From assembly GCA_030167865.1 (NCBI GenBank), contig JALAGF010002695.1, positions 56,774 through 76,773 on the forward strand: a DNA stretch of 20,000 nucleotides, written 5' to 3'. The notes under the pieces are model-generated. The model made no database searches. It was given only the letters and a program-made list of their open reading frames with translations, and was not told where the DNA came from. The DNA comes from Craspedostauros australis. Lineage: Eukaryota. The stretch's first letter is position 1, and every line of letters starts with the position of its first letter. The translations under genes were made by a program, and so were the position numbers. This document shows positions 10,704 to 20,000 of the stretch, in pieces.

Positions 10704-11344
10704 CTGATTCCTGCGACGGTGTGCTTGATGATGGACACGGAGAGTTCGAATCAAAACGGAAGAGTGATAGTGTGCGAAAGGTGCCTTGGTTGATCCGCAC
10801 AACTCGTCAGATGAATGAAGAGAGTGAATACTATTTTGGACGTCACCAACATGTCAGGTTGTTCTTGATCGATGGACAATCAAAGACTTCTTGCGATCGT
10901 TCATGGTTTCATGCACGTAAGTGCATCCACCAATCCATCGCCGCAGGTGTCAAAGGAGGTGTGACGATGGCGCGAAGTGATGAACGGAACGAAAAAGTGG
11001 AAGCAAAAGCAGAGTTTGACACCAAAGATGTCAAGGAAACGTTGCACGCCATCGTTTTGCACGAACTTGATTGGCTGACAAGCTGGACGGTGTTGAACAG
11101 TGACCTTTTTGGACCCATCCGACCACATCTATATCATTCACGAGTGTGCAAACCAATCACGAACCCATCGAAAGAACACGATCGAGAAACGTGAAGGAAG
11201 ATTGATGACATCAAAGATCCGGAGTGGGAAACGCAAGAGAGGGGAAGAGGTGAAGAGGTGAAGAAGTGCTACATCCATCATAGATCCGCAGGCCCCACAA
11301 CAAGTCCAAGAGTTCCAGCAGCAGCAGCACCAGCAGTATCAAAG

Positions 11345-13819
11345 ATGGGATCGATCACCTCCATGAACGATGGCGCAACGAAGCGGGGATCGCAGGCCAA
11401 CTTTGCGCCCGAGACCGAGTTCCCCACGAACATCACGTTCGAGGACATCGCCAAGTATCCTGGACGTGCCTGCATAGGCCGCATGGGCGCACCCACAAAG
11501 CCCAGCTTCGTGCCGTCGTCTCCCAACCATGTCGTGTACCTGCAGGCGGGCGGCGCGGCAGGGACGACGCAGACATTGTGGAAGTTGAATTTGAAGGATG
11601 GCAAGGTCTCGGAACTGGCGCGTCCGCCAACGGGCGTGGGCGAAGAAGACACCTTGAGCGAAGAAGAGAAGCTGCGCAGAGAGCGAACGCGGCAGTTGCA
11701 CACGGGCATCACCAACTACCAATGGGCGGGAGGCAGCAAGGATGTCGCGGCGTCGCCATCGTCGTCAGCAGCAGCAGCAGCAACTGCAGGGCCTTCGTCC
11801 TTGATTTGCCAAGTGGGCAACGATCTCATGAGGGTTGTGGTGGCGGGTGCAGAAGAGGCGGATCCTGCTGTGCCTGCTGTGATGGAGAAGCTGGTCGACG
11901 GATCGGCTCTGCCAGGACCCATTCTCGATCCACGCATTTCGAAGGACGGTTCCACGATCGTCTTTTGCTGTGAACGGGAGCTGTACTACGCCGTCCTTCC
12001 ATCGGCAGATGCTGCTGCAACCACAACCACCACCACCACCGAACTGCCACAGGTCCATCAGCTCACGACAGGAGCGCGCGATACACCCGGCGTCACGAAT
12101 GGCCAAGCCGACTTCACCGCCATGGAGGAGATGGACCGATACGAGGGATACTGGATCTCGCCCGATGCGCAGTTCGTCGTTTACGAACAGGCCGATGAAA
12201 GTCACATTCCTCCATTCCGCATTTCGCATTCTGGCAAATCTGCCACCGCCACGCACCCGTCGCATGCGCACGAAGATCATCATTATCCATTTGCTGGCGA
12301 TGCCAACCCCAGGGTCACTCTGCACGTCACGCAGCTCGGTGGTGGCGAGCCCATGGAATTGGACATCACGACTCCCATGGGGAGCACCGACGACATATAC
12401 CTCGCGCGTGTCCAATGGATGACCAACACCAAGCTCTTCGTCCAGCTTCTCAGCAGGACGCAGACGGAGCTCGTCTTGCTGGAGTATGATACCTCGTCGG
12501 CATCCGCGCAGCCCATTCAAGGACGGGTGCTGCTGACGGAGAAGCAGCCCGATGCGTGGGTCAATCTGCACAATATCCTTGTTCCCATTCCCAACAGTGC
12601 AGTTACAGACGACGGCAGTGCAAGCGAGGATTTCGATTTCGTGTGGGCCAGTGAGCGCACGGGATATCAGCACTTGTATCGTTACAATCGCAATGGCAAA
12701 CTGGTCGCAACCTTGACGAGTGGTGAATGGGTCGTTGAAAGCACGTCCGTCAGCATGATCGATCGCCAGCAAGGCTTCATCTATTTTACCGGAACCAAGG
12801 ATGGTTGCACGGAGCGTCACTTGTACCGCACATCGTTGGATGGCAATGGGGATGTTGTCAAGATCACTGCCCAAGATTCCGGCATGCACACCATCGTCGC
12901 CATGAGCGTAACCCACGGCTGCTACATCGATTCCTGGTCGTCGATGACGCAGCCATTTCGTGTGGCTGTGCGTTCCTTGACGGATAGCTCCATCATCCAC
13001 GAGCTGTACAATGGCGCCACGGAAGAGAAACTGAAGCAGCTCGAGTTGGTCCCTCCCGAACTGTTCCAAATCACGGCCAACGACAATGCAACAACATTGC
13101 ACGGTGCACTCTACAAGCCAGATCCAACGGTGCATGGCAGCGGGCCGTATCCCACCATCGTCGCGGTGTACGGCGGTCCGCATGTTCAGTACGTTGCCAA
13201 TATCTGGACATTGACGGCGGATCTGCGTGCCCAGCGTCTGCGATCGCAGGGATACGCAATCCTCAAGGTGGACAACCGCGGTTCGGCACGCCGAGGATTG
13301 GCGTTCGAACGATTCCTTCACAACGACATGGGCAACATCGAAGTCCAAGACCAGGCCGCCGCAGTGCAGCACTGGATCGATGAAGGCGTCGTCAACAAGG
13401 CCGCGGTGGGCATCTACGGCTGGAGCTACGGTGGCTACATGAGCGCCATGTGCTTGGCCAAACGACCCGACATGTTCCATGCCGCGGTGGCCGGTGCGCT
13501 CGTATCGTCGTGGGACAGCTACGACACATGCTACACCGAACGGTACATGGGAACGCCGCAATCCAATCCCGACGGCTACGCGCGTTCCGCCATCATGCCA
13601 TACGTTCGCAACATCCAAGGCAGCCTCCTGATCGTGCACGGGCTCATCGATGAGAATGTGCACTTTCGTCATTCGGCCTGTCTCATCAATTCTCTGATCC
13701 ACGCGCAGAAGCATTACGAGCTTCTGCTCTTTCCTGATGAACGCCACGTTCCGCGCGGTGTCGCCGACAAGGTGTTCATGGAACAGCGCATCGCCTCCTT
13801 CCTTCATCGCAGTCTGTGA
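11345..13819 (+). CDS. Dipeptidyl peptidase IV / DPP8-9-like serine peptidase (family S9B), intronless, about 824 aa, probably cytosolic
   Basis: GWSYGG nucleophile motif, HGLIDENVHF (catalytic Asp), ERH (catalytic His), EEMDRYEGYW double-Glu motif, YPFAGDANP, VYGGPHVQ, DNRGS, YDTCYTERYMG. The first ATG of the ORF is at 11345, and no signal peptide is visible. Confidence 0.95.
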   Translation: MGSITSMNDGATKRGSQANFAPETEFPTNITFEDIAKYPGRACIGRMGAPTKPSFVPSSPNHVVYLQAGGAAGTTQTLWKLNLKDGKVSELARPPTGVGEEDTLSEEEKLRRERTRQLHTGITNYQWAGGSKDVAASPSSSAAAAATAGPSSLICQVGNDLMRVVVAGAEEADPAVPAVMEKLVDGSALPGPILDPRISKDGSTIVFCCERELYYAVLPSADAAATTTTTTTELPQVHQLTTGARDTPGVTNGQADFTAMEEMDRYEGYWISPDAQFVVYEQADESHIPPFRISHSGKSATATHPSHAHEDHHYPFAGDANPRVTLHVTQLGGGEPMELDITTPMGSTDDIYLARVQWMTNTKLFVQLLSRTQTELVLLEYDTSSASAQPIQGRVLLTEKQPDAWVNLHNILVPIPNSAVTDDGSASEDFDFVWASERTGYQHLYRYNRNGKLVATLTSGEWVVESTSVSMIDRQQGFIYFTGTKDGCTERHLYRTSLDGNGDVVKITAQDSGMHTIVAMSVTHGCYIDSWSSMTQPFRVAVRSLTDSSIIHELYNGATEEKLKQLELVPPELFQITANDNATTLHGALYKPDPTVHGSGPYPTIVAVYGGPHVQYVANIWTLTADLRAQRLRSQGYAILKVDNRGSARRGLAFERFLHNDMGNIEVQDQAAAVQHWIDEGVVNKAAVGIYGWSYGGYMSAMCLAKRPDMFHAAVAGALVSSWDSYDTCYTERYMGTPQSNPDGYARSAIMPYVRNIQGSLLIVHGLIDENVHFRHSACLINSLIHAQKHYELLLFPDERHVPRGVADKVFMEQRIASFLHRSL

Positions 13820-14264: not shown

Positions 14265-17123
14265 CTAGTTTGGATATTCTTCACTCAGACCAAGCTCTTC
14301 GTTGACACAGTCCACGAACTCGTATTCAAAGTCAGACGTCCGGACTGGCACATCGTCGGAACTTCCCGCCTCGCAAAAGCAATACTCGTAATCGTATTCG
14401 TATTCGTAGCCGTATTCGTATTCGTAGCCGTATTCATCGCCGTAGCCGTATTCATCAAGGTCAACGTCAGCGTCCCCGTCGTACTCATCAAGGTCAACGT
14501 CAGCATCCTCGTCGGCATCGAGTTCCCGGTCATGGTCTCGAATCATCGGCGTTGAGGATAATGACGACGACGACCACGATGGTACTGGCTTTGCCAGTTC
14601 TGCCACATACGCAGATTCCAGCCTTTCGTCTTGTTCTTGGCGGATCCTCTCGCGAGCCAACGCGCGTCGGCGGCGATTCGTCCCCACTAGATCATCCTTA
14701 GCGAATGCCCCCACCGACGGATTCCTGAACTCGTTGCTGTTCACGTTCCGCGTCAGCCAATCCGGTTGGTCCACGTCAACCGTCACAGCGCGGTTGCGAC
14801 GACGACGACGGCTGTCATCGGTGAAGAGCTTCACCTTGGATACGTTGCATCCTCGACATTGGGCCTTCACGTCGTACTTGATCGCCGGCGTCGCATTCGA
14901 AGCGAATGTCATCGTCACACCCGTGATCGACACGAAGTTCGAATCGCACACTTCAAATGATGCGACTTCGTATGCCACGATGGCGCATATCTCGAACGCA
15001 TCTCGCTCTGTGTCTGACAGCTCGTCCACGGACGCGCCGTTGAAGTATGATGCGAAGGAGCTTCCGATGGACACCGTGGCGTTGAACAGCGTGGCCTTGG
15101 TGCTGCAGTTCGTCTCCTGGACCTCGTGGATATCTTGGAAGGTGTTGACTCCGTTCTCTTCCAGCAGCGCGAGGGCTTCCGATGGCAGAGGAGCACGGTT
15201 CGCCAGCTTGTTCGAGACAGGACAGTAGCATAGCTTGGACGACACACCAGATACTGATTCCCCTGGTGGCGGTAGCGACGACGATGGCGGCGGTGGTAGC
15301 GGCAAGCCAGTGTTGAGTGATCTTTGGACAGCACTCGTCTGCCATTGGACATCGTCTTCGTCGAAGCTGTCCCAATCGATCTTGTACCGTGGGTCGCTTT
15401 CGAGATGTCGGGCATATTGGAAGGTGATGTCATTGGAGAAGCTGAATGAGTTGGCGCAGCTGATACAAATCCCACCCAATGCGTACAAACCCGCACTGTA
15501 GCTGGGGGTTGCGTCGTAAGTGTAGGTTCGCAGATGGCGTGGTTGTTCGCGTTCCTCGAGTTGCTGCAACATGCGCCTTCGCTTGTTGGAGGCTCTGGTG
15601 GTGTTGCGCCGTTCAATGGCTGTGAGCTGGCGATGGGTTTTGTCGCAGGTATCTTGAGAGAAGTAGTTGAGCTCGTTGTAAGCGGCGAGAATGTCTTGTT
15701 GCAGGTCGGCCATATCATCGGGGTCGGATACATTGACTTGATTTGTGTTGATCAAGATGGCGACGGTGCTGGTGAATGTTTCGAACAGATCCGTAGTGTT
15801 GGTGCAAGCAGGATCTTCCTGGACTTGGATGATGCTCCCGATTTCGAAAGTGGTTGGTTGTGGTTCAGGTCCTGGTCCTGGTCCCGGTCCTGGAGGTGGT
15901 GGCGGCTCCGAAAGACCGCGCAAGGCCCTCGTCTTCTCGAGTCCGGTTGCCGTGTTGGCGTCACGTTGCAATGCCCGGGATCGCCTAACTTCTGCCATCT
16001 TCTGTGCCACCACGGAGATGAGCTCCTCCAGAAAGTCGCCCCGACGGGGACCACGGCAAGCCTTGCATTTGGGCTCGTCCGTGTCTGGGCTGTCAGTGTA
16101 GGTATCGTCCACTGTCTTGCTCATTGCGCTTAGGCTGGGCCAAGCAAGTGTAGTCGGAGTGGTTTGTGCCGTTGTTGTTCCTTCTATCGGTGCTCCATGC
16201 TTGGCTGTTTTCACGGGGGCCAGATCCAAGACGGTCTGCTTGAGTAAACGGTGCGTTCCAACAGACCCAGCGTCTATGGTTCTCGTGCGTCGTAGAACCT
16301 TGGTCGCGGAGGTTTGCCACTGTTGGGGGCCTTGTCCTGGATCGGTGGTGGACGATTTGGTCATACCAGCAGCAGTAGTAGCAGTAGCAGCATCATCCGA
16401 GGTGTCAGACTGCAGGGCCTCACGCTCCTCCGCTGCCTCCAGAATCTCAGACAGGTCGAACGTGGTGTCTCCACCATCGTCGTTGCCATCGTTTTCAGCC
16501 TCGTCAGCTTCGGTCGCTTCCAACAGCCGTCGACGACCGTCGGTATCGTTGTTGGTTTTGTTGCCTCCGGAGAAGAGATGGATGAGCTCATCGTCGTCGT
16601 CGAAAGTCTTGCAGCTGTTGCATTCCACGATCATCTCCAGCACCATCGTCATCTTGCGCGACCTCCTAGCGTCCTTCTTGCGGTCGCCAATCGTTCCCGC
16701 GAAGCCTTTGACTTCCGTGGACACATCCCCGACTGTGCAGTTCTTGACCAACCTCACGGACCCCGCCTGCGGACACGCGATCAAGTTGTTGTAGGCCGTC
16801 TCGAAGGACTCCGCCAGCATCTCCATTTCGGAGTCGGTGAATTGCTGCGACACCGCATTGAGGCGAACGAAAGCGGCCACTTCGTATTCGACAGGCGTCA
16901 CGTTGCAGACGTTCGTGGTGTTGTCGCTGTCGTCGAGCAAGTTCCATGTGTTGGTGATGGGTTCCTCGAAGGGGCTTTCAATCAAATCCAGGGAGTTGTC
17001 GTCGAGGAAGGCGGAGACGAAAGCGGCGCTGCCTTTGCCATTGTCTGGCATCCATTGGCACAGGAGGAGCAGGGCTGAGACGACGGTGGTGACGACGACT
17101 CTCTGTTGCGATGTCGCCCTCAT
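14265..17123 (-). CDS. Secreted/extracellular protein of unknown function (952 aa) with three Cys-patterned modules, many RxL/polybasic sites, Pro-rich linkers and an acidic Tyr-rich tail
   Basis: Single 952-aa ORF with a hydrophobic N-terminus (VVVTTVVSALLLLCQW). It has a repeated AY..C..CxxC pattern (CNSC, CISC, CRGC) and many N-x-S/T sequons. Coding status is supported by a frame-conserved paralog at 19152-20000. Confidence 0.88.
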   Translation of the reverse strand: MRATSQQRVVVTTVVSALLLLCQWMPDNGKGSAAFVSAFLDDNSLDLIESPFEEPITNTWNLLDDSDNTTNVCNVTPVEYEVAAFVRLNAVSQQFTDSEMEMLAESFETAYNNLIACPQAGSVRLVKNCTVGDVSTEVKGFAGTIGDRKKDARRSRKMTMVLEMIVECNSCKTFDDDDELIHLFSGGNKTNNDTDGRRRLLEATEADEAENDGNDDGGDTTFDLSEILEAAEEREALQSDTSDDAATATTAAGMTKSSTTDPGQGPQQWQTSATKVLRRTRTIDAGSVGTHRLLKQTVLDLAPVKTAKHGAPIEGTTTAQTTPTTLAWPSLSAMSKTVDDTYTDSPDTDEPKCKACRGPRRGDFLEELISVVAQKMAEVRRSRALQRDANTATGLEKTRALRGLSEPPPPPGPGPGPGPEPQPTTFEIGSIIQVQEDPACTNTTDLFETFTSTVAILINTNQVNVSDPDDMADLQQDILAAYNELNYFSQDTCDKTHRQLTAIERRNTTRASNKRRRMLQQLEEREQPRHLRTYTYDATPSYSAGLYALGGICISCANSFSFSNDITFQYARHLESDPRYKIDWDSFDEDDVQWQTSAVQRSLNTGLPLPPPPSSSLPPPGESVSGVSSKLCYCPVSNKLANRAPLPSEALALLEENGVNTFQDIHEVQETNCSTKATLFNATVSIGSSFASYFNGASVDELSDTERDAFEICAIVAYEVASFEVCDSNFVSITGVTMTFASNATPAIKYDVKAQCRGCNVSKVKLFTDDSRRRRRNRAVTVDVDQPDWLTRNVNSNEFRNPSVGAFAKDDLVGTNRRRRALARERIRQEQDERLESAYVAELAKPVPSWSSSSLSSTPMIRDHDRELDADEDADVDLDEYDGDADVDLDEYGYGDEYGYEYEYGYEYEYDYEYCFCEAGSSDDVPVRTSDFEYEFVDCVNEELGLSEEYPN
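14382..14520 (-). repeat. Coding tandem repeats: (DADVDLDEY)x2 and YG/YE dipeptide repeats
   Basis: tcatcaaggtcaacgtcagc occurs twice, and tattcgtattcgtagccg occurs twice in tandem. Confidence 0.85.
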
Positions 17124-18449
17124 GGTGGTTACCAGCAGCGATGTCTCGAAGTACTATACAATGATGTTATATACCAATACTACTAGCAATGGTAGAATGG
17201 GTATTGGTACTCGTGCGATTATGTGATGTATTGTGATGTGATCTGTTTCATGATGTGTTACCTATGAGTGGTGCGAGCTGCGGATGGTGCTTCAGAGTCC
17301 ACACACACACACGAGAGTCAGAAGCTCGCATCGCCACAACACCATGCAGAAGACACCACGAACAATTACACAGGCAGAGAATCGTTGTCGGCGCCCTTCA
17401 CTGGAACGGTTGATTGTGTGAAGGAAGTGCGCAAGCACAGAGCGGAAACGTATTTTGTGCTGTTCCAGCCAAACCGTTGTCATGGGCATGTTTCGGAGTC
17501 ATGCCGGACACACGAACAGTCACAACTCTGACCAGTACCGATGGTGGCGCCAACGCCCTTGGTCATGTGTCCGCAGACGCAAAGAACATCACCGAATCTT
17601 CCCCCTTCTTCATGCGAAGCAGCGTCTGCAAATGTCACAACAACAGCGCCACCTACGGACAATCCACTTTATCATTCCAGCCCCAAACCGAAACTAATGC
17701 ACATTTCAGCGAACGTTGTGTACAGTTGCGAAAAGTGCTCTGTGCACTCTAGACTCCATCCTTTGCAATCGTGGGTCATCCAAGCAGCAAGGGAAAAGAT
17801 AGAACACACCGGCCAACAACAACCATGAGCTGTACCAATGCGCATACTACTAGTCGTGGTCGTTGGACAACACAGCGAGAAAGGCCCAAACGCCGTCGGG
17901 TTTCGTTGAAGCCTTAAATAGAGCAACAAGAACGCATAAATCATGCGACTAAGCAAAACCGAAGCGAGCAGTTGTTCCTGTCATAGTAGCTTTTCATTGG
18001 TAAGAACACTCGTCCCCAACCTCCATCACGCAACGAACAGTCATTCTAGTTGGATCTTCACAGGTTATTTAGTGGTCGCCAAGGCACATATCACCAAACT
18101 TTCGTTTGCTGTTTCTTTACTACGGATAATTTTTCTCTACCGTAGCTTTTGAGGTTGATTGCACACACTCTAGACCAACAAGTGTTCGTTACATCTATCG
18201 CGACAAAGGTCTAACGGGCATTCATGAGTCCTGGTCGAACACAGAAGAGAGGGAGATCTCGAGAGAGCAGTATGTGTGCCATCAGTGTAGACAAACAGAT
18301 TTCCGACGGTTAGCTCATCCGGGCGCGTCAATCATTGCGCTGCCATCAGGTACACAGCGGTAAACAAAGACTCCCAAGAGAGCCGAGACCTGGTCTTTCC
18401 CTTCTCCTGCAAATGCACAGTAAAAACACTTATCGATCGTGCAACACAC

Positions 18450-18631
18450 TGTGAGATTATAGGAGATTAGATGATATGCTTGGTACTCACACTACTTAAG
18501 TAGGCAATTACTCCGTTTCATCAACGGAGTGGGCTAGGGCTACCGGTTTCGGGTGCAATCCCCGGGCATTCCAGATTTCGTCGTCTGGGGTTCGATTCCT
18601 TTCTCTTTGCCATTTTCTGTTTATCCTAACA
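18450..18631 (+). repeat. 5' LTR (182 bp)
   Basis: TGTGAGATTA...TATCCTAACA, identical by eye to 18862-19043 (offset 412). Confidence 0.95.
18526..18573 (+). ncRNA. Putative tRNA-like mini-module within the LTR (second copy 18938-18985); not a canonical tRNA
   Basis: GGAGTG pairs with CATTCC, followed by an A discriminator. TCGGG-TGCAATC-CCCGG forms a 5-bp stem with a 7-nt loop (T-arm geometry) directly before the acceptor strand. D and anticodon arms are replaced by about 16 nt. Confidence 0.45.
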
Positions 18632-18645
18632 TGGTGGAATGCCCG
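18632..18645 (+). promoter_or_regulatory. Primer binding site TGGTGGAATGCCCG
   Basis: It abuts the 5' LTR. The reverse complement CGGGCATTCCA-CCA has the form of a mature tRNA 3' end (UCCA-CCA, tentatively Ala-like). Confidence 0.85.
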
Positions 18646-18852
18646 TGCGGTCGCACCGCATGGTTGCAGCTCATCCCTGCGACATGCAAATTCAGCTAAC
18701 AACTGGTTTGTAGGCCAAACCACACCACTTCACGCCGCGTTCGCGACTCTTGGTTGGTAGCAATACGGTACACAAGGGCGAGCTGGTCACTCGTCGCAGG
18801 CGCAAACCACGCCTGCACTACCAAACTCGAAACCGAGATTAGCGTTCGTACC

Positions 18853-18861
18853 AGGAGTGGG
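18853..18861 (+). promoter_or_regulatory. Polypurine tract AGGAGTGGG
   Basis: 8 of 9 bases are purines, immediately upstream of the 3' LTR TG. Confidence 0.75.
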
Positions 18862-19043
18862 TGTGAGATTATAGGAGATTAGATGATATGCTTGGTACTC
18901 ACACTACTTAAGTAGGCAATTACTCCGTTTCATCAACGGAGTGGGCTAGGGCTACCGGTTTCGGGTGCAATCCCCGGGCATTCCAGATTTCGTCGTCTGG
19001 GGTTCGATTCCTTTCTCTTTGCCATTTTCTGTTTATCCTAACA
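18862..19043 (+). repeat. 3' LTR (182 bp)
   Basis: TGTGAGATTA...TATCCTAACA, identical by eye to 18450-18631. Confidence 0.95.
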
Positions 19044-19151
19044 CACACATCTCCAGGTGTGCAACTGGAATTGAAGGAGGCAAGTCTATTCCAGAGTGCC
19101 GAGAGGATCGTATTGGCTTTGCGATGGAATGTATTACAATGCAATGTGAAT

Positions 19152-20000
19152 TTATGGATATGATTCATCGAGACCAAGCTGTTCGTTGACACACTTCACG
19201 ATCTCGTGCTCGAAAGCCGATAGGCTTGCCGGGAGGTCATCCGTACTGCTGACGTCGCAGTAGCAGTTTTCGCTTTCGTCATCGTCGGCGGCAGCGTTGT
19301 CGCCATCGTTGTCGGCGTCCAGATTCCGGCCGCGACCTCGGACCATCGACGGCGACGTTGACGATGGCTTCGCCGGCTCTGCCATGGATGCAGATTCCAG
19401 CCTTTCGCTTCGTTCTTGGCGGATGCTCTCGCGAGCCAACGCGCGTCGTTGGCGTTGATTCTCAGCTGAATCATCCATGGCGAATGTACCCACGGACGGA
19501 TTCCTGAACTTGGTATTGCTTAGGTCTTGTGTCCACCGATCCTTCTGACCCATTGCAGCCACCAGAGCGCGGTTGCGGCTCCGATTGCGACGACGATCAC
19601 CCCCATCCAAAGTGTCGAAGAGCTGCACCGTGGATATGTTGCATCCTCGGCACTGGGCCTTCACGTCGTACGTGATCGTCGGCGTCGTATCCGAAGCAGA
19701 CGTCAACGTAGCCTCCATGATCGACACGAAATTCGAATCGCACACTTCGAGCGATGCGACTTCGTATGCCACGATGGCGCATTCCTCGAACGCCTCTCGC
19801 TCTTCGTCTGACAGCACGTCCACCGACCTTCCGTTGAGGAAAGAGGCGAAGACATTGTCAAGGGAGATCGTGGCATTGAATGGTGTGGGCTTGCTGGGGC
19901 AGCTCGTCTCCTGGACCTCCTGGATGATTTCGAAGGTGTTACTTGCATCTTCATCCAGCAGTGCGAGGGCTTCCGATGGCAGAGGAGCACGGTTCGCCAG
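19152..20000 (-). CDS. 3' part of a tandem paralog of the 952-aa secreted protein (5' end lies outside the window)
   Basis: The frame is open from the window edge: LANRAPLPSEALALLDEDASNTFEIIQEVQETSC...AFEECAIVAYEVASLEVCDSNFVSI...YDVKAQCRGCN...CVNEQLGLDESYP*. It is colinear with the C-terminal third of 14265-17123. Confidence 0.9.
   Translation of the reverse strand: MANRAPLPSEALALLDEDASNTFEIIQEVQETSCPSKPTPFNATISLDNVFASFLNGRSVDVLSDEEREAFEECAIVAYEVASLEVCDSNFVSIMEATLTSASDTTPTITYDVKAQCRGCNISTVQLFDTLDGGDRRRNRSRNRALVAAMGQKDRWTQDLSNTKFRNPSVGTFAMDDSAENQRQRRALARESIRQERSERLESASMAEPAKPSSTSPSMVRGRGRNLDADNDGDNAAADDDESENCYCDVSSTDDLPASLSAFEHEIVKCVNEQLGLDESYP

Follow-up and report, generated by a model that had tools for sequence, protein, structure and literature searches.

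A tRNA-like segment in the terminal repeat of a miniature LTR retrotransposon complements the element's own primer binding site

When the long terminal repeat (LTR) of a retrotransposon contains the complement of the element's own primer binding site (PBS), does the element make its own primer, or does it carry a piece of the transfer RNA (tRNA) that primes it? The question is raised by a 594-bp element, a complete terminal-repeat retrotransposon in miniature (TRIM), at positions 18450-19043 of a 20,000-nucleotide stretch of contig JALAGF010002695.1 (positions 56,774 to 76,773 of the forward strand). The whole of this stretch is called the window below, and coordinates without further label refer to it. 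A preliminary description of the DNA had read a tRNA-like module in the LTR as complementary to the PBS and had proposed that it might supply the primer for reverse transcription. The complementarity proved to be real and statistically solid. As to its meaning, we favor, at a level that approaches an even chance without reaching it, priming by a host tRNA in an element whose LTR holds an insert from the same tRNA species. The parts of the element are the following.

18445-18449, no strand: left target-site duplication, CACAC; the same 5 nt stand at 19044-19048, just outside the LTRs
18450-18631, plus strand: 5' LTR, 182 nt, TG...CA, a direct repeat of 18862-19043
18563-18573, plus strand: anti-PBS 11-mer CGGGCATTCCA, the exact reverse complement of PBS bases 18635-18645
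18632-18645, plus strand: PBS TGGTGGAATGCCCG, adjoining the terminal CA of the 5' LTR
18632-18861, plus strand: internal domain, 230 nt, non-coding, opening with the PBS and ending with the polypurine tract
18854-18861, plus strand: 3' end of the polypurine tract, GGAGTGGG, adjoining the 3' LTR
18862-19043, plus strand: 3' LTR, 182 nt, a direct repeat of 18450-18631, carrying the module again at 18938-18985
19044-19048, no strand: right target-site duplication, CACAC, repeating 18445-18449

The element is a young non-autonomous LTR retrotransposon, and its assignment to the TRIMs in the preliminary description stands. TRIMs are defined by a total length below 1000 bp and terminal direct repeats of roughly 100-250 bp (PMC6934838), and both hold here. 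The internal domain has a PBS and a polypurine tract at its ends, the target-site duplication lies within 4-6 bp, and there is no coding capacity, none of the open reading frames (ORFs) of at least 120 aa in the window overlapping the element. The LTRs at 18450-18631 and 18862-19043 are 100% identical over their 182 nt; because they are identical and the target duplication is intact, the insertion is recent.

The 11-mer and its complement were confirmed base for base at 18563-18573 and 18635-18645. Exact sites of CGGGCATTCCA in the window are 18563-18573 and, in the 3' LTR, 18975-18985 on the plus strand, and 18635-18645 on the minus strand; a fourth site, at 15967 on the minus strand, has one mismatch, and four matches were reached in 0 of 200 shuffles of the window. 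The complement in the element is 11 nt long and begins 3 nt past the LTR. When the LTR was shuffled with its dinucleotides preserved and exact complements starting 0-5 nt after it were counted, a complement of at least 11 nt appeared in 5 of 20,000 shuffles and one of at least 10 nt in 24 of 20,000. The base that follows the module in the LTR is G, and not the start of a CCA.

The 11-mer closes a 48-nt module with the outline of part of a tRNA. This module and the features around it are, all on the plus strand:

18496-18502: TATA-like word TTAAGTA, read from the sequence, about 30 nt 5' of the module
18510-18530: upstream hairpin ACTCCGTT/AACGGAGT, 8 bp with a 5-nt loop, present in the minimum-energy fold, where it uses the first five module bases
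18526-18573: tRNA-like module, 48 nt, made up of an acceptor-like 5' strand, an unstructured linker, a T-arm-like hairpin, an acceptor-like 3' strand and an A
18549-18565: T-arm-like hairpin TCGGG / TGCAATC / CCCGG, after which come GCATTCC and then A
18552-18562: first box-B-like word, GGGTGCAATCC, conserved
18589-18599: second box-B-like word, GGTTCGATTCC, matched in the window by the two LTR copies and nothing else (two matches also arise in 13 of 200 shuffles)
18613-18616: T-run TTTT in U5, between module and PBS

Exactly 8 nt separate the end of the T-arm-like hairpin from that of the 11-mer, a spacing equal to the one between T-arm and discriminator base in a tRNA. We scanned 39,966 window positions on both strands for a 5-bp stem (G-U allowed) with a 7-nt loop of the pattern T.CRA. 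Four positions carry such a hairpin and two of them are the LTR copies, for a background of about 2 in the 39,964 others. The geometry of a tRNA 3' half that had been claimed for this LTR segment is by this count non-random, and from geometry alone it suggests that the module is of tRNA origin.

For comparison we have three copies in two lineages. In metagenome contigs the degenerate pattern TKCRANYNNCGGGCATTCCA, which spans T-loop and 11-mer, had at least 119 loci; among the matches listed are one related element, L045, and one tRNA ending in the 11-mer, L061. The same pattern had 17 loci in viral contigs, none with a tRNA and none TRIM-like, and the pattern GGGTGCAATCNNNGGGCATTCCA had no locus in viral contigs and one chance match in a bacterial genome, outside any TRIM context. 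L045 occupies 1128 nt of a 1244-nt contig on the minus strand, in a tandem order of LTR, internal domain, LTR and internal domain, followed by 6 nt of a third LTR and then by unrelated sequence. Tandem arrays with single LTRs between the units are described for Tf1/Tf2, Cassandra and one Helenus family. The two L045 copies, A and B, are 81-83% identical in their alignable parts. The window element can be aligned with them only over 18526-18640, from the start of the module to the PBS, at 68% identity (121 and 127 columns); the 5' part of the LTR (U3) and the internal domains are no longer alignable between window and L045. Within the module 37 of 48 columns are invariant in the three copies, the anti-PBS strand is unchanged in all of them, and the last 23 columns include 21 invariant ones. 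The module is the best-conserved stretch of the LTR in L045, the sole relative among the matches listed.

On the proposal that the module supplies the primer, its stems should be conserved and should covary, and the first of these holds. All 33 stem cells of the acceptor/T-arm model pair, compared with 26-64% in slid controls, a comparison that favors the model in that the structure was derived from one of the three sequences. The five changes seen are one-sided and all lead to or from G-U, and none of the 11 pairs shows a compensatory change. The further expectation, that the 11-mer and the PBS covary, is not borne out in L045. TGG opens the PBS directly after the terminal CA of the LTR in all three copies, and TGGTGGAAT follows the LTR in each, but TGGTGGAAT is all that the PBS of L045 keeps: it reads TGGTGGAATTGCGG... 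in A and TGGTGGAATTCCAC... in B, with TGGTGGAATT common to both. A T at PBS position 10 in both copies ends the exact match to their own, unchanged modules after 6 nt, and because A and B share this T, it was present in their common ancestor. By these sequences the 11-nt match between LTR and PBS is not conserved in L045, and the PBS there does not track the module. Such drift is expected of a PBS that follows a host tRNA, in an element that keeps its module for some other reason.

Further signals recur in L045. The words that align with GGTTCGATTCC are GGTTTGACTCC in A and GGTTCAACTCC in B, the T-run that aligns with the TTTT of the window is TTTTT in both, and TATA-like words (TATATAT in A, TTATAGG in B) lie 31-32 nt upstream of the module. 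The spacing from TATA to start is taken as about 30 nt, and the TATA-like words would place the start of an RNA polymerase II (pol II) transcript near 18526.

The second match, the tRNA gene in L061 (309-384, plus strand), is called Ile-GAU by ARAGORN and has the acceptor stem GGAATGC/GCATTCC. The metagenome contig that carries it has an array of nine tRNA genes spanning about 1.3 kb, prokaryotic or phage-like in look and unrelated to the host. Given a CCA tail, its 3' end would match 16 nt in the window, 18632-18647, which makes the PBS credible as the complement of a tRNA and says nothing about the host's own tRNAs. We make no claim of an alanine isotype, which a tRNA identity rule would read from the ...TTCCA end; the sole real tRNA seen with this end is the one called Ile.

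Programs that look for tRNAs do not recognize the module. ARAGORN in its default mode found no tRNA in the window, and in the default and -ps modes none in the three LTRs. At a threshold of 80% its models were poor and disagreed among the copies (window, Leu-CAA at 18522-18611; B, Met-CAT; A, none), and its mitochondrial modes gave one stray call, in copy A only; we accept none of these. Rfam gave no match to 5S or hammerhead models at E up to 10; its only result among tRNA models was tRNA-Sec with 11.8 bits and E 8.2 (gathering threshold 47). A weak resemblance was returned to the 3' part of RF00233, Tymo_tRNA-like, with 10.8 bits and E 4.1 at window 18549-18588 and 12.9 bits and E 9.2 at 989-1024 of L045 (minus strand), for a gathering threshold of 40. 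The T-arm analogue of that family has the loop core UGCAA, as the module does, and the scores are too weak for a relationship to be claimed. The module text, TGGGCTAGGG in the window and TGAGCTAGAG in L045, has no exact TRGCY, the D-loop part apparently being missing, and box A as read from the sequence is degenerate. The T-arm-like loop has GGTGC; the GGTTC that is conserved in the box B of Helenus sits 26 nt past the hairpin, at 18589-18593, and in copy B, and A has GGTTT.

GGAGTG (18526-18531) can pair with CATTCC (18567-18572) over the 6 bp that had been proposed, one of them G-U, and the pairing is kept in all three copies, but the tRNA-mimic fold is not the one of minimum energy in the window. 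For the isolated modules of 46-48 nt, the acceptor/T-arm fold has -10.2 (window), -11.8 and -5.2 kcal/mol, compared with -16.3 (window), -15.8 and -19.1 kcal/mol for the minimum-energy folds, and of these only that of copy A contains the T-arm. The upstream hairpin would have a counterpart in L045, with ACTCC/GGAGT possible in B and CCCC/GGGG in A. On the other side of the module a 5-bp hairpin, CCAGA/TCTGG, within 18571-18588, uses the last three module bases, and the L045 copies have CCAG/CTGG there.

Module and polypurine tract have an 8-mer in common. The last 8 nt of the tract are the first 8 nt of the module, GGAGTGGG standing at 18854-18861, 18526-18533 and 18938-18945; 88 of 20,000 LTR shuffles contain this 8-mer. 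The polypurine tract of L045 and the module of copy A likewise both read GGGGTGAG (minus-strand 524-531 and 83-90; 83 of 20,000 shuffles), and the module of copy B is one position off. The two lineages differ at 2 positions of the 8-mer, yet tract and module agree within each lineage.

In all three copies, the RNA's 5' end is predicted to fold with the module on PBS and leader and not as a mini-tRNA. The module-leader duplexes have energies of -50.6, -40.5 and -37.3 kcal/mol, equalled by 1, 9 and 5 of 1000 leader shuffles, and most of this signal comes from the exact core. Outside that core the pairing lacks significance in the window (duplex energy: 103 of 1000 shuffles; alignment score: 302 of 1000) and is modest in L045 (20 of 1000 in A, 11 of 1000 in B). 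For this reason descent of the entire leader from an inverted, since decayed copy of the module was dropped as a main argument. Masking of the PBS by the module has no specific support either: in the thermodynamic model, opening 18632-18645 costs 12.4-12.7 kcal/mol with the whole module and 12.1 kcal/mol without it, about 12 kcal/mol either way. Each L045 module does favor its own leader over that of the other copy, by 3.1 and 5.4 kcal/mol. Both, however, pair still better with the leader of the window, and for that reason the preference was rejected as evidence of covariation.

What is known of the host comes from its proteins. At 11258-13819 on the plus strand the window holds an intron-free ORF for a dipeptidyl-peptidase IV/S9 peptidase (DPPIV_N, E 4e-66; Peptidase_S9, E 3e-50), whose best relatives are diatom transcriptome proteins at 47-59% identity, the nearest of them at 56-59%. 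These identities suggest that the host has no close relative in the protein collection searched, and on the evidence of this one protein it would be a diatom-like stramenopile. An oomycete-type initiator over the 11-mer had been considered and was dropped, since the protein matches pointed to diatoms. The TRIM itself occupies the spacer between two paralogous ORFs on the minus strand, 14265-17123 and 19152-20000, which are identical at 165 of 317 aligned positions (52%, E 7e-92) and have no Pfam match.

How does this element compare with those already described? The preliminary description knew of no case of this exact arrangement. Both of its features have been described separately, the tRNA-like LTR sequence (PMC10886601) and the complementarity of LTR and PBS (PMC6317226); it is their combination that was reported not found in Helenus. 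Helenus elements are TRIMs with a tRNA-like sequence in the LTR, a PBS, a polypurine tract and target-site duplications of 4-5 bp, described from fungi, animals and Selaginella (Kojima 2024, PMC10886601). In that work the similarity to a tRNA or a tRNA-derived short interspersed nuclear element (SINE) was detected with Censor or tRNAscan-SE, and of later work the passages on Helenus in a paper on sugar beet only cite the family. The PBS sequence of the window element turned up, among the papers listed for it, only in lists of primers. They are established there as a kind of TRIM primed by host tRNAs; their proposed origin is the insertion of a tRNA-derived SINE into an LTR, and the proposed function of the insert is to serve RNA polymerase III (pol III) as a promoter. 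LTR-PBS complementarity was sought in Helenus and found in no family, so that the tRNA-like sequence was judged not to be the primer, and the words diatom, stramenopile, oomycete and protist have no occurrence in the main text of that paper (PMC10886601). The window element is like the fungal and plant Helenus in being a TRIM below 1 kb with a PBS, a polypurine tract and a 5-bp target-site duplication, and like Helenus at large in having, in both LTRs, a tRNA-like sequence that is unlikely to be a working tRNA. It differs in that many of the Helenus sequences are predicted as tRNA genes and Helenus is described with a box A of TRGCY and YGG, whereas the window module is a degenerate "top half", negative in ARAGORN and Rfam and without an intact box A. 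Its diatom-like host also sets it apart. The main difference is that the 3' end of the module complements the element's own PBS.

Self-priming elements have been predicted by blastn from an LTR complement of at least 10 nt starting 0-5 nt after the 5' LTR, which applies to 12% of plant elements (PMC6317226). They are described as lacking the TGG signature (PMC5006619). Tf1, the experimentally established self-primer, relies on 11 nt and on cleavage by RNase H (PMC7175516), and its PBS begins ATAAC (PMC11042837). With Tf1/Tf2/Tj1, the Tf1/sushi group and the plant elements Tcn1 and TAR, the window element shares an LTR complement to the region just past the 5' LTR, of 11 nt as in Tf1. These elements are described as having no tRNA-type PBS or TGG, whereas the window element has the TGG and a tRNA-like complement; it is also non-autonomous, and its anti-PBS strand is set in a tRNA-like geometry. 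Tf1 has the first 11 nt of its mRNA as primer, whereas in the window the 11-mer would come about 37 nt into the RNA if the start near 18526 is right.

Other elements offer looser parallels. Cassandra, with its 5S rRNA sequence, and Ajax also have a TRIM LTR module that comes from a small-RNA gene and is conserved above the rest of the LTR (PMC10886601). The module of the window is tRNA-like and not 5S, for which Rfam gave no match, and the description of Cassandra gives no link between 5S sequence and PBS (PMC10886601). The RNA of HIV-1 likewise mimics its own primer tRNA near the PBS (PMC5113203, PMC5689005). There, however, the element mimics the anticodon domain and works by binding lysyl-tRNA synthetase, whereas in the window it is the acceptor/T-arm half that is imitated, by a sequence complementary to the PBS itself. 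Retrozymes are small non-autonomous elements with a structured RNA module in the LTR that could process the transcript (PMC4918200, PMC5680766); theirs are hammerhead ribozymes, for which the window LTR has no Rfam match. Judged against these published accounts, what is new is the combination of two known features, a tRNA-like LTR sequence and LTR-PBS complementarity, in a diatom-like host.

We return to the reading that we favor, host-tRNA priming plus an LTR insert from the same tRNA species. A putative host tRNA ending in ...CGGGCATTCCA-CCA would pair with all 14 nt of TGGTGGAATGCCCG. The module would be an insert of tRNA or SINE derivation that has been retained, corresponding to a tRNA's acceptor/T-arm "top half", and its source would be the tRNA species that the PBS targets. 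The last 11 module bases would then be a tRNA 3' end without its CCA and for that reason complementary to the PBS. The two could have come to match in species through capture of a packaged primer tRNA by template switching during reverse transcription, and as a side effect the 5' RNA may fold with the module on the PBS. The TGG after the terminal CA in all three copies is the signature of pairing with the CCA of a tRNA and so speaks for host-tRNA priming. The complete TRIM anatomy, the non-chance geometry of a tRNA 3' half and the fact that the module adds nothing to the occlusion of the PBS count on the same side. A number of points weigh against this reading. Descent from a tRNA is read from geometry only, and no tRNA finder recognizes the module. 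Helenus shows no LTR-PBS complementarity, so a match in species between module and primer needs a special explanation. The 21 invariant columns among the 23 at the 3' end of the module, kept between diverged lineages, suggest constraint on the anti-PBS strand. The published self-primer rule (at least 10 nt, starting 0-5 nt after the LTR) describes this element too, and pairing of the module with PBS and leader is predicted in every copy, at energies that few shuffles equal. Finally, the reading takes as its premise that the host carries the matching tRNA.

The main competitor is that the element supplies its own primer from the LTR module, either by fold-back in cis or as a processed small RNA in trans. 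We consider this unlikely, if a serious contender, and from the sequence we doubt on balance that the module functions in priming. In the cis version, of Tf1 type and in our view rather improbable, an RNA starting at about 18526 would fold back so that 18563-18573 pairs with 18635-18645, the RNase H of a partner element would cut after A18573, and the freed 3' end would prime the minus strand; the resemblance to a tRNA would be inherited from an ancestor that was tRNA-primed. An 11-nt complement that starts 3 nt after the LTR is what the published predictor looks for (PMC6317226), 11 nt is also the length used by Tf1 (PMC7175516), and the match is perfect in the sole demonstrably recent copy, the one with identical LTRs. 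The identity of the anti-PBS strand in three copies and the minimum-energy folds that join module to PBS and leader would suit fold-back as well, and the TATA-like words 30-32 nt upstream would put the module at the predicted 5' end of the RNA. Fold-back, however, leaves the conserved TGG without a partner and makes a T-arm in exact tRNA register superfluous, and it would put the anti-PBS strand at about +38 to +48 of the RNA, compared with +1 to +11 in Tf1. The exact match in L045 is just 6 nt, with the mismatching T in both copies; complementarity past the core is insignificant in the window and modest in A and B; and the L045 modules pair better with the window leader, showing no consistent preference for their own partner. 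In the trans version, to which we give a very small chance, the module would be freed from, for example, a transcript of roughly 90 nt ending at the T-run: RNase P would cut before G18526 and RNase Z after A18573, CCA would be added, and the product would prime in trans on the 14-nt PBS. No other model accounts jointly for the TGG, the discriminator-like A, the register of the T-arm, the 6 bp of acceptor pairing kept in all three copies and the conserved T-run some 40 nt downstream. RNase P, RNase Z and the CCA-adding enzyme accept acceptor/T-arm minihelices as substrates, and the TGCAATC loop shares its UGCAA core with the Rfam tymovirus consensus, to which the matches of 10.8 and 12.9 bits are weak. 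The isolated module, however, does not prefer the required fold, the 8-bp upstream hairpin takes up its first five bases in the window fold, and no tRNA model matches it. Box A is not intact, with no exact TRGCY...YGG of the Helenus type, and the loop has a G at the position of U55, which is invariant in the T-loop consensus of tRNAs. The PBS of L045 would pair with a CCA-tailed module over 9 nt only, and compensatory double changes are absent from all 11 stem pairs.

Two explanations take the module out of priming. It could be mainly an internal pol III promoter, as in the TRIMp3 class (Helenus, Ajax, Cassandra), its match to the PBS being a coincidence of tRNA species; we give this a small chance. 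Kojima, noting that boxes A and B are conserved, proposes such a promoter role for the tRNA-like sequences of LTRs, and 594 bp falls inside the Helenus size range of 311-1263 bp (PMC10886601). The module region has two conserved box-B-like words, GGGTGCAATCC and GGTTCGATTCC, the GGTTC of the latter being present in the window and in copy B. Pol III, however, terminates at T-runs, and the conserved run between module and PBS would tend to stop the transcript short of the PBS. Box A is degenerate, the TATA-like words near -30 would suggest pol II, and a promoter role leaves the invariant acceptor-like 3' strand unexplained. The other explanation is chance: an ordinary TRIM in which an LTR 11-mer happens to complement the PBS beside a GC-rich hairpin, with no relation to tRNA and no function. 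That no tRNA-finding tool recognizes the module agrees with it, and the finding was picked from a very large scan, which inflates coincidences. We nevertheless find chance scarcely credible, given how few LTR shuffles (5 of 20,000) hold a complement of that length, how rare T-arm-like hairpins are elsewhere in the window, with this one in exact register, and that the module is kept in an independent lineage whose LTR 5' part and internal domain can no longer be aligned.

The element bears on how LTR retroelements change from one primer to another and on the origin of self-priming from tRNA priming; the primers of self-priming elements show no tRNA ancestry. An LTR with the 3' half of the tRNA of its own PBS is the intermediate to be expected if a primer tRNA can be internalized. 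The family may still be active, because the window copy, with its identical LTRs, is very young. If a host tRNA primes it, the element would be, relative to the main text on Helenus, the first Helenus-like TRIM on record from a diatom-like stramenopile, and its LTR insert and its primer would come from the same tRNA, hinting at capture of a packaged primer. If instead the primer comes from the element itself, this TRIM would have internalized its primer tRNA and would bridge tRNA-primed and self-primed reverse transcription.

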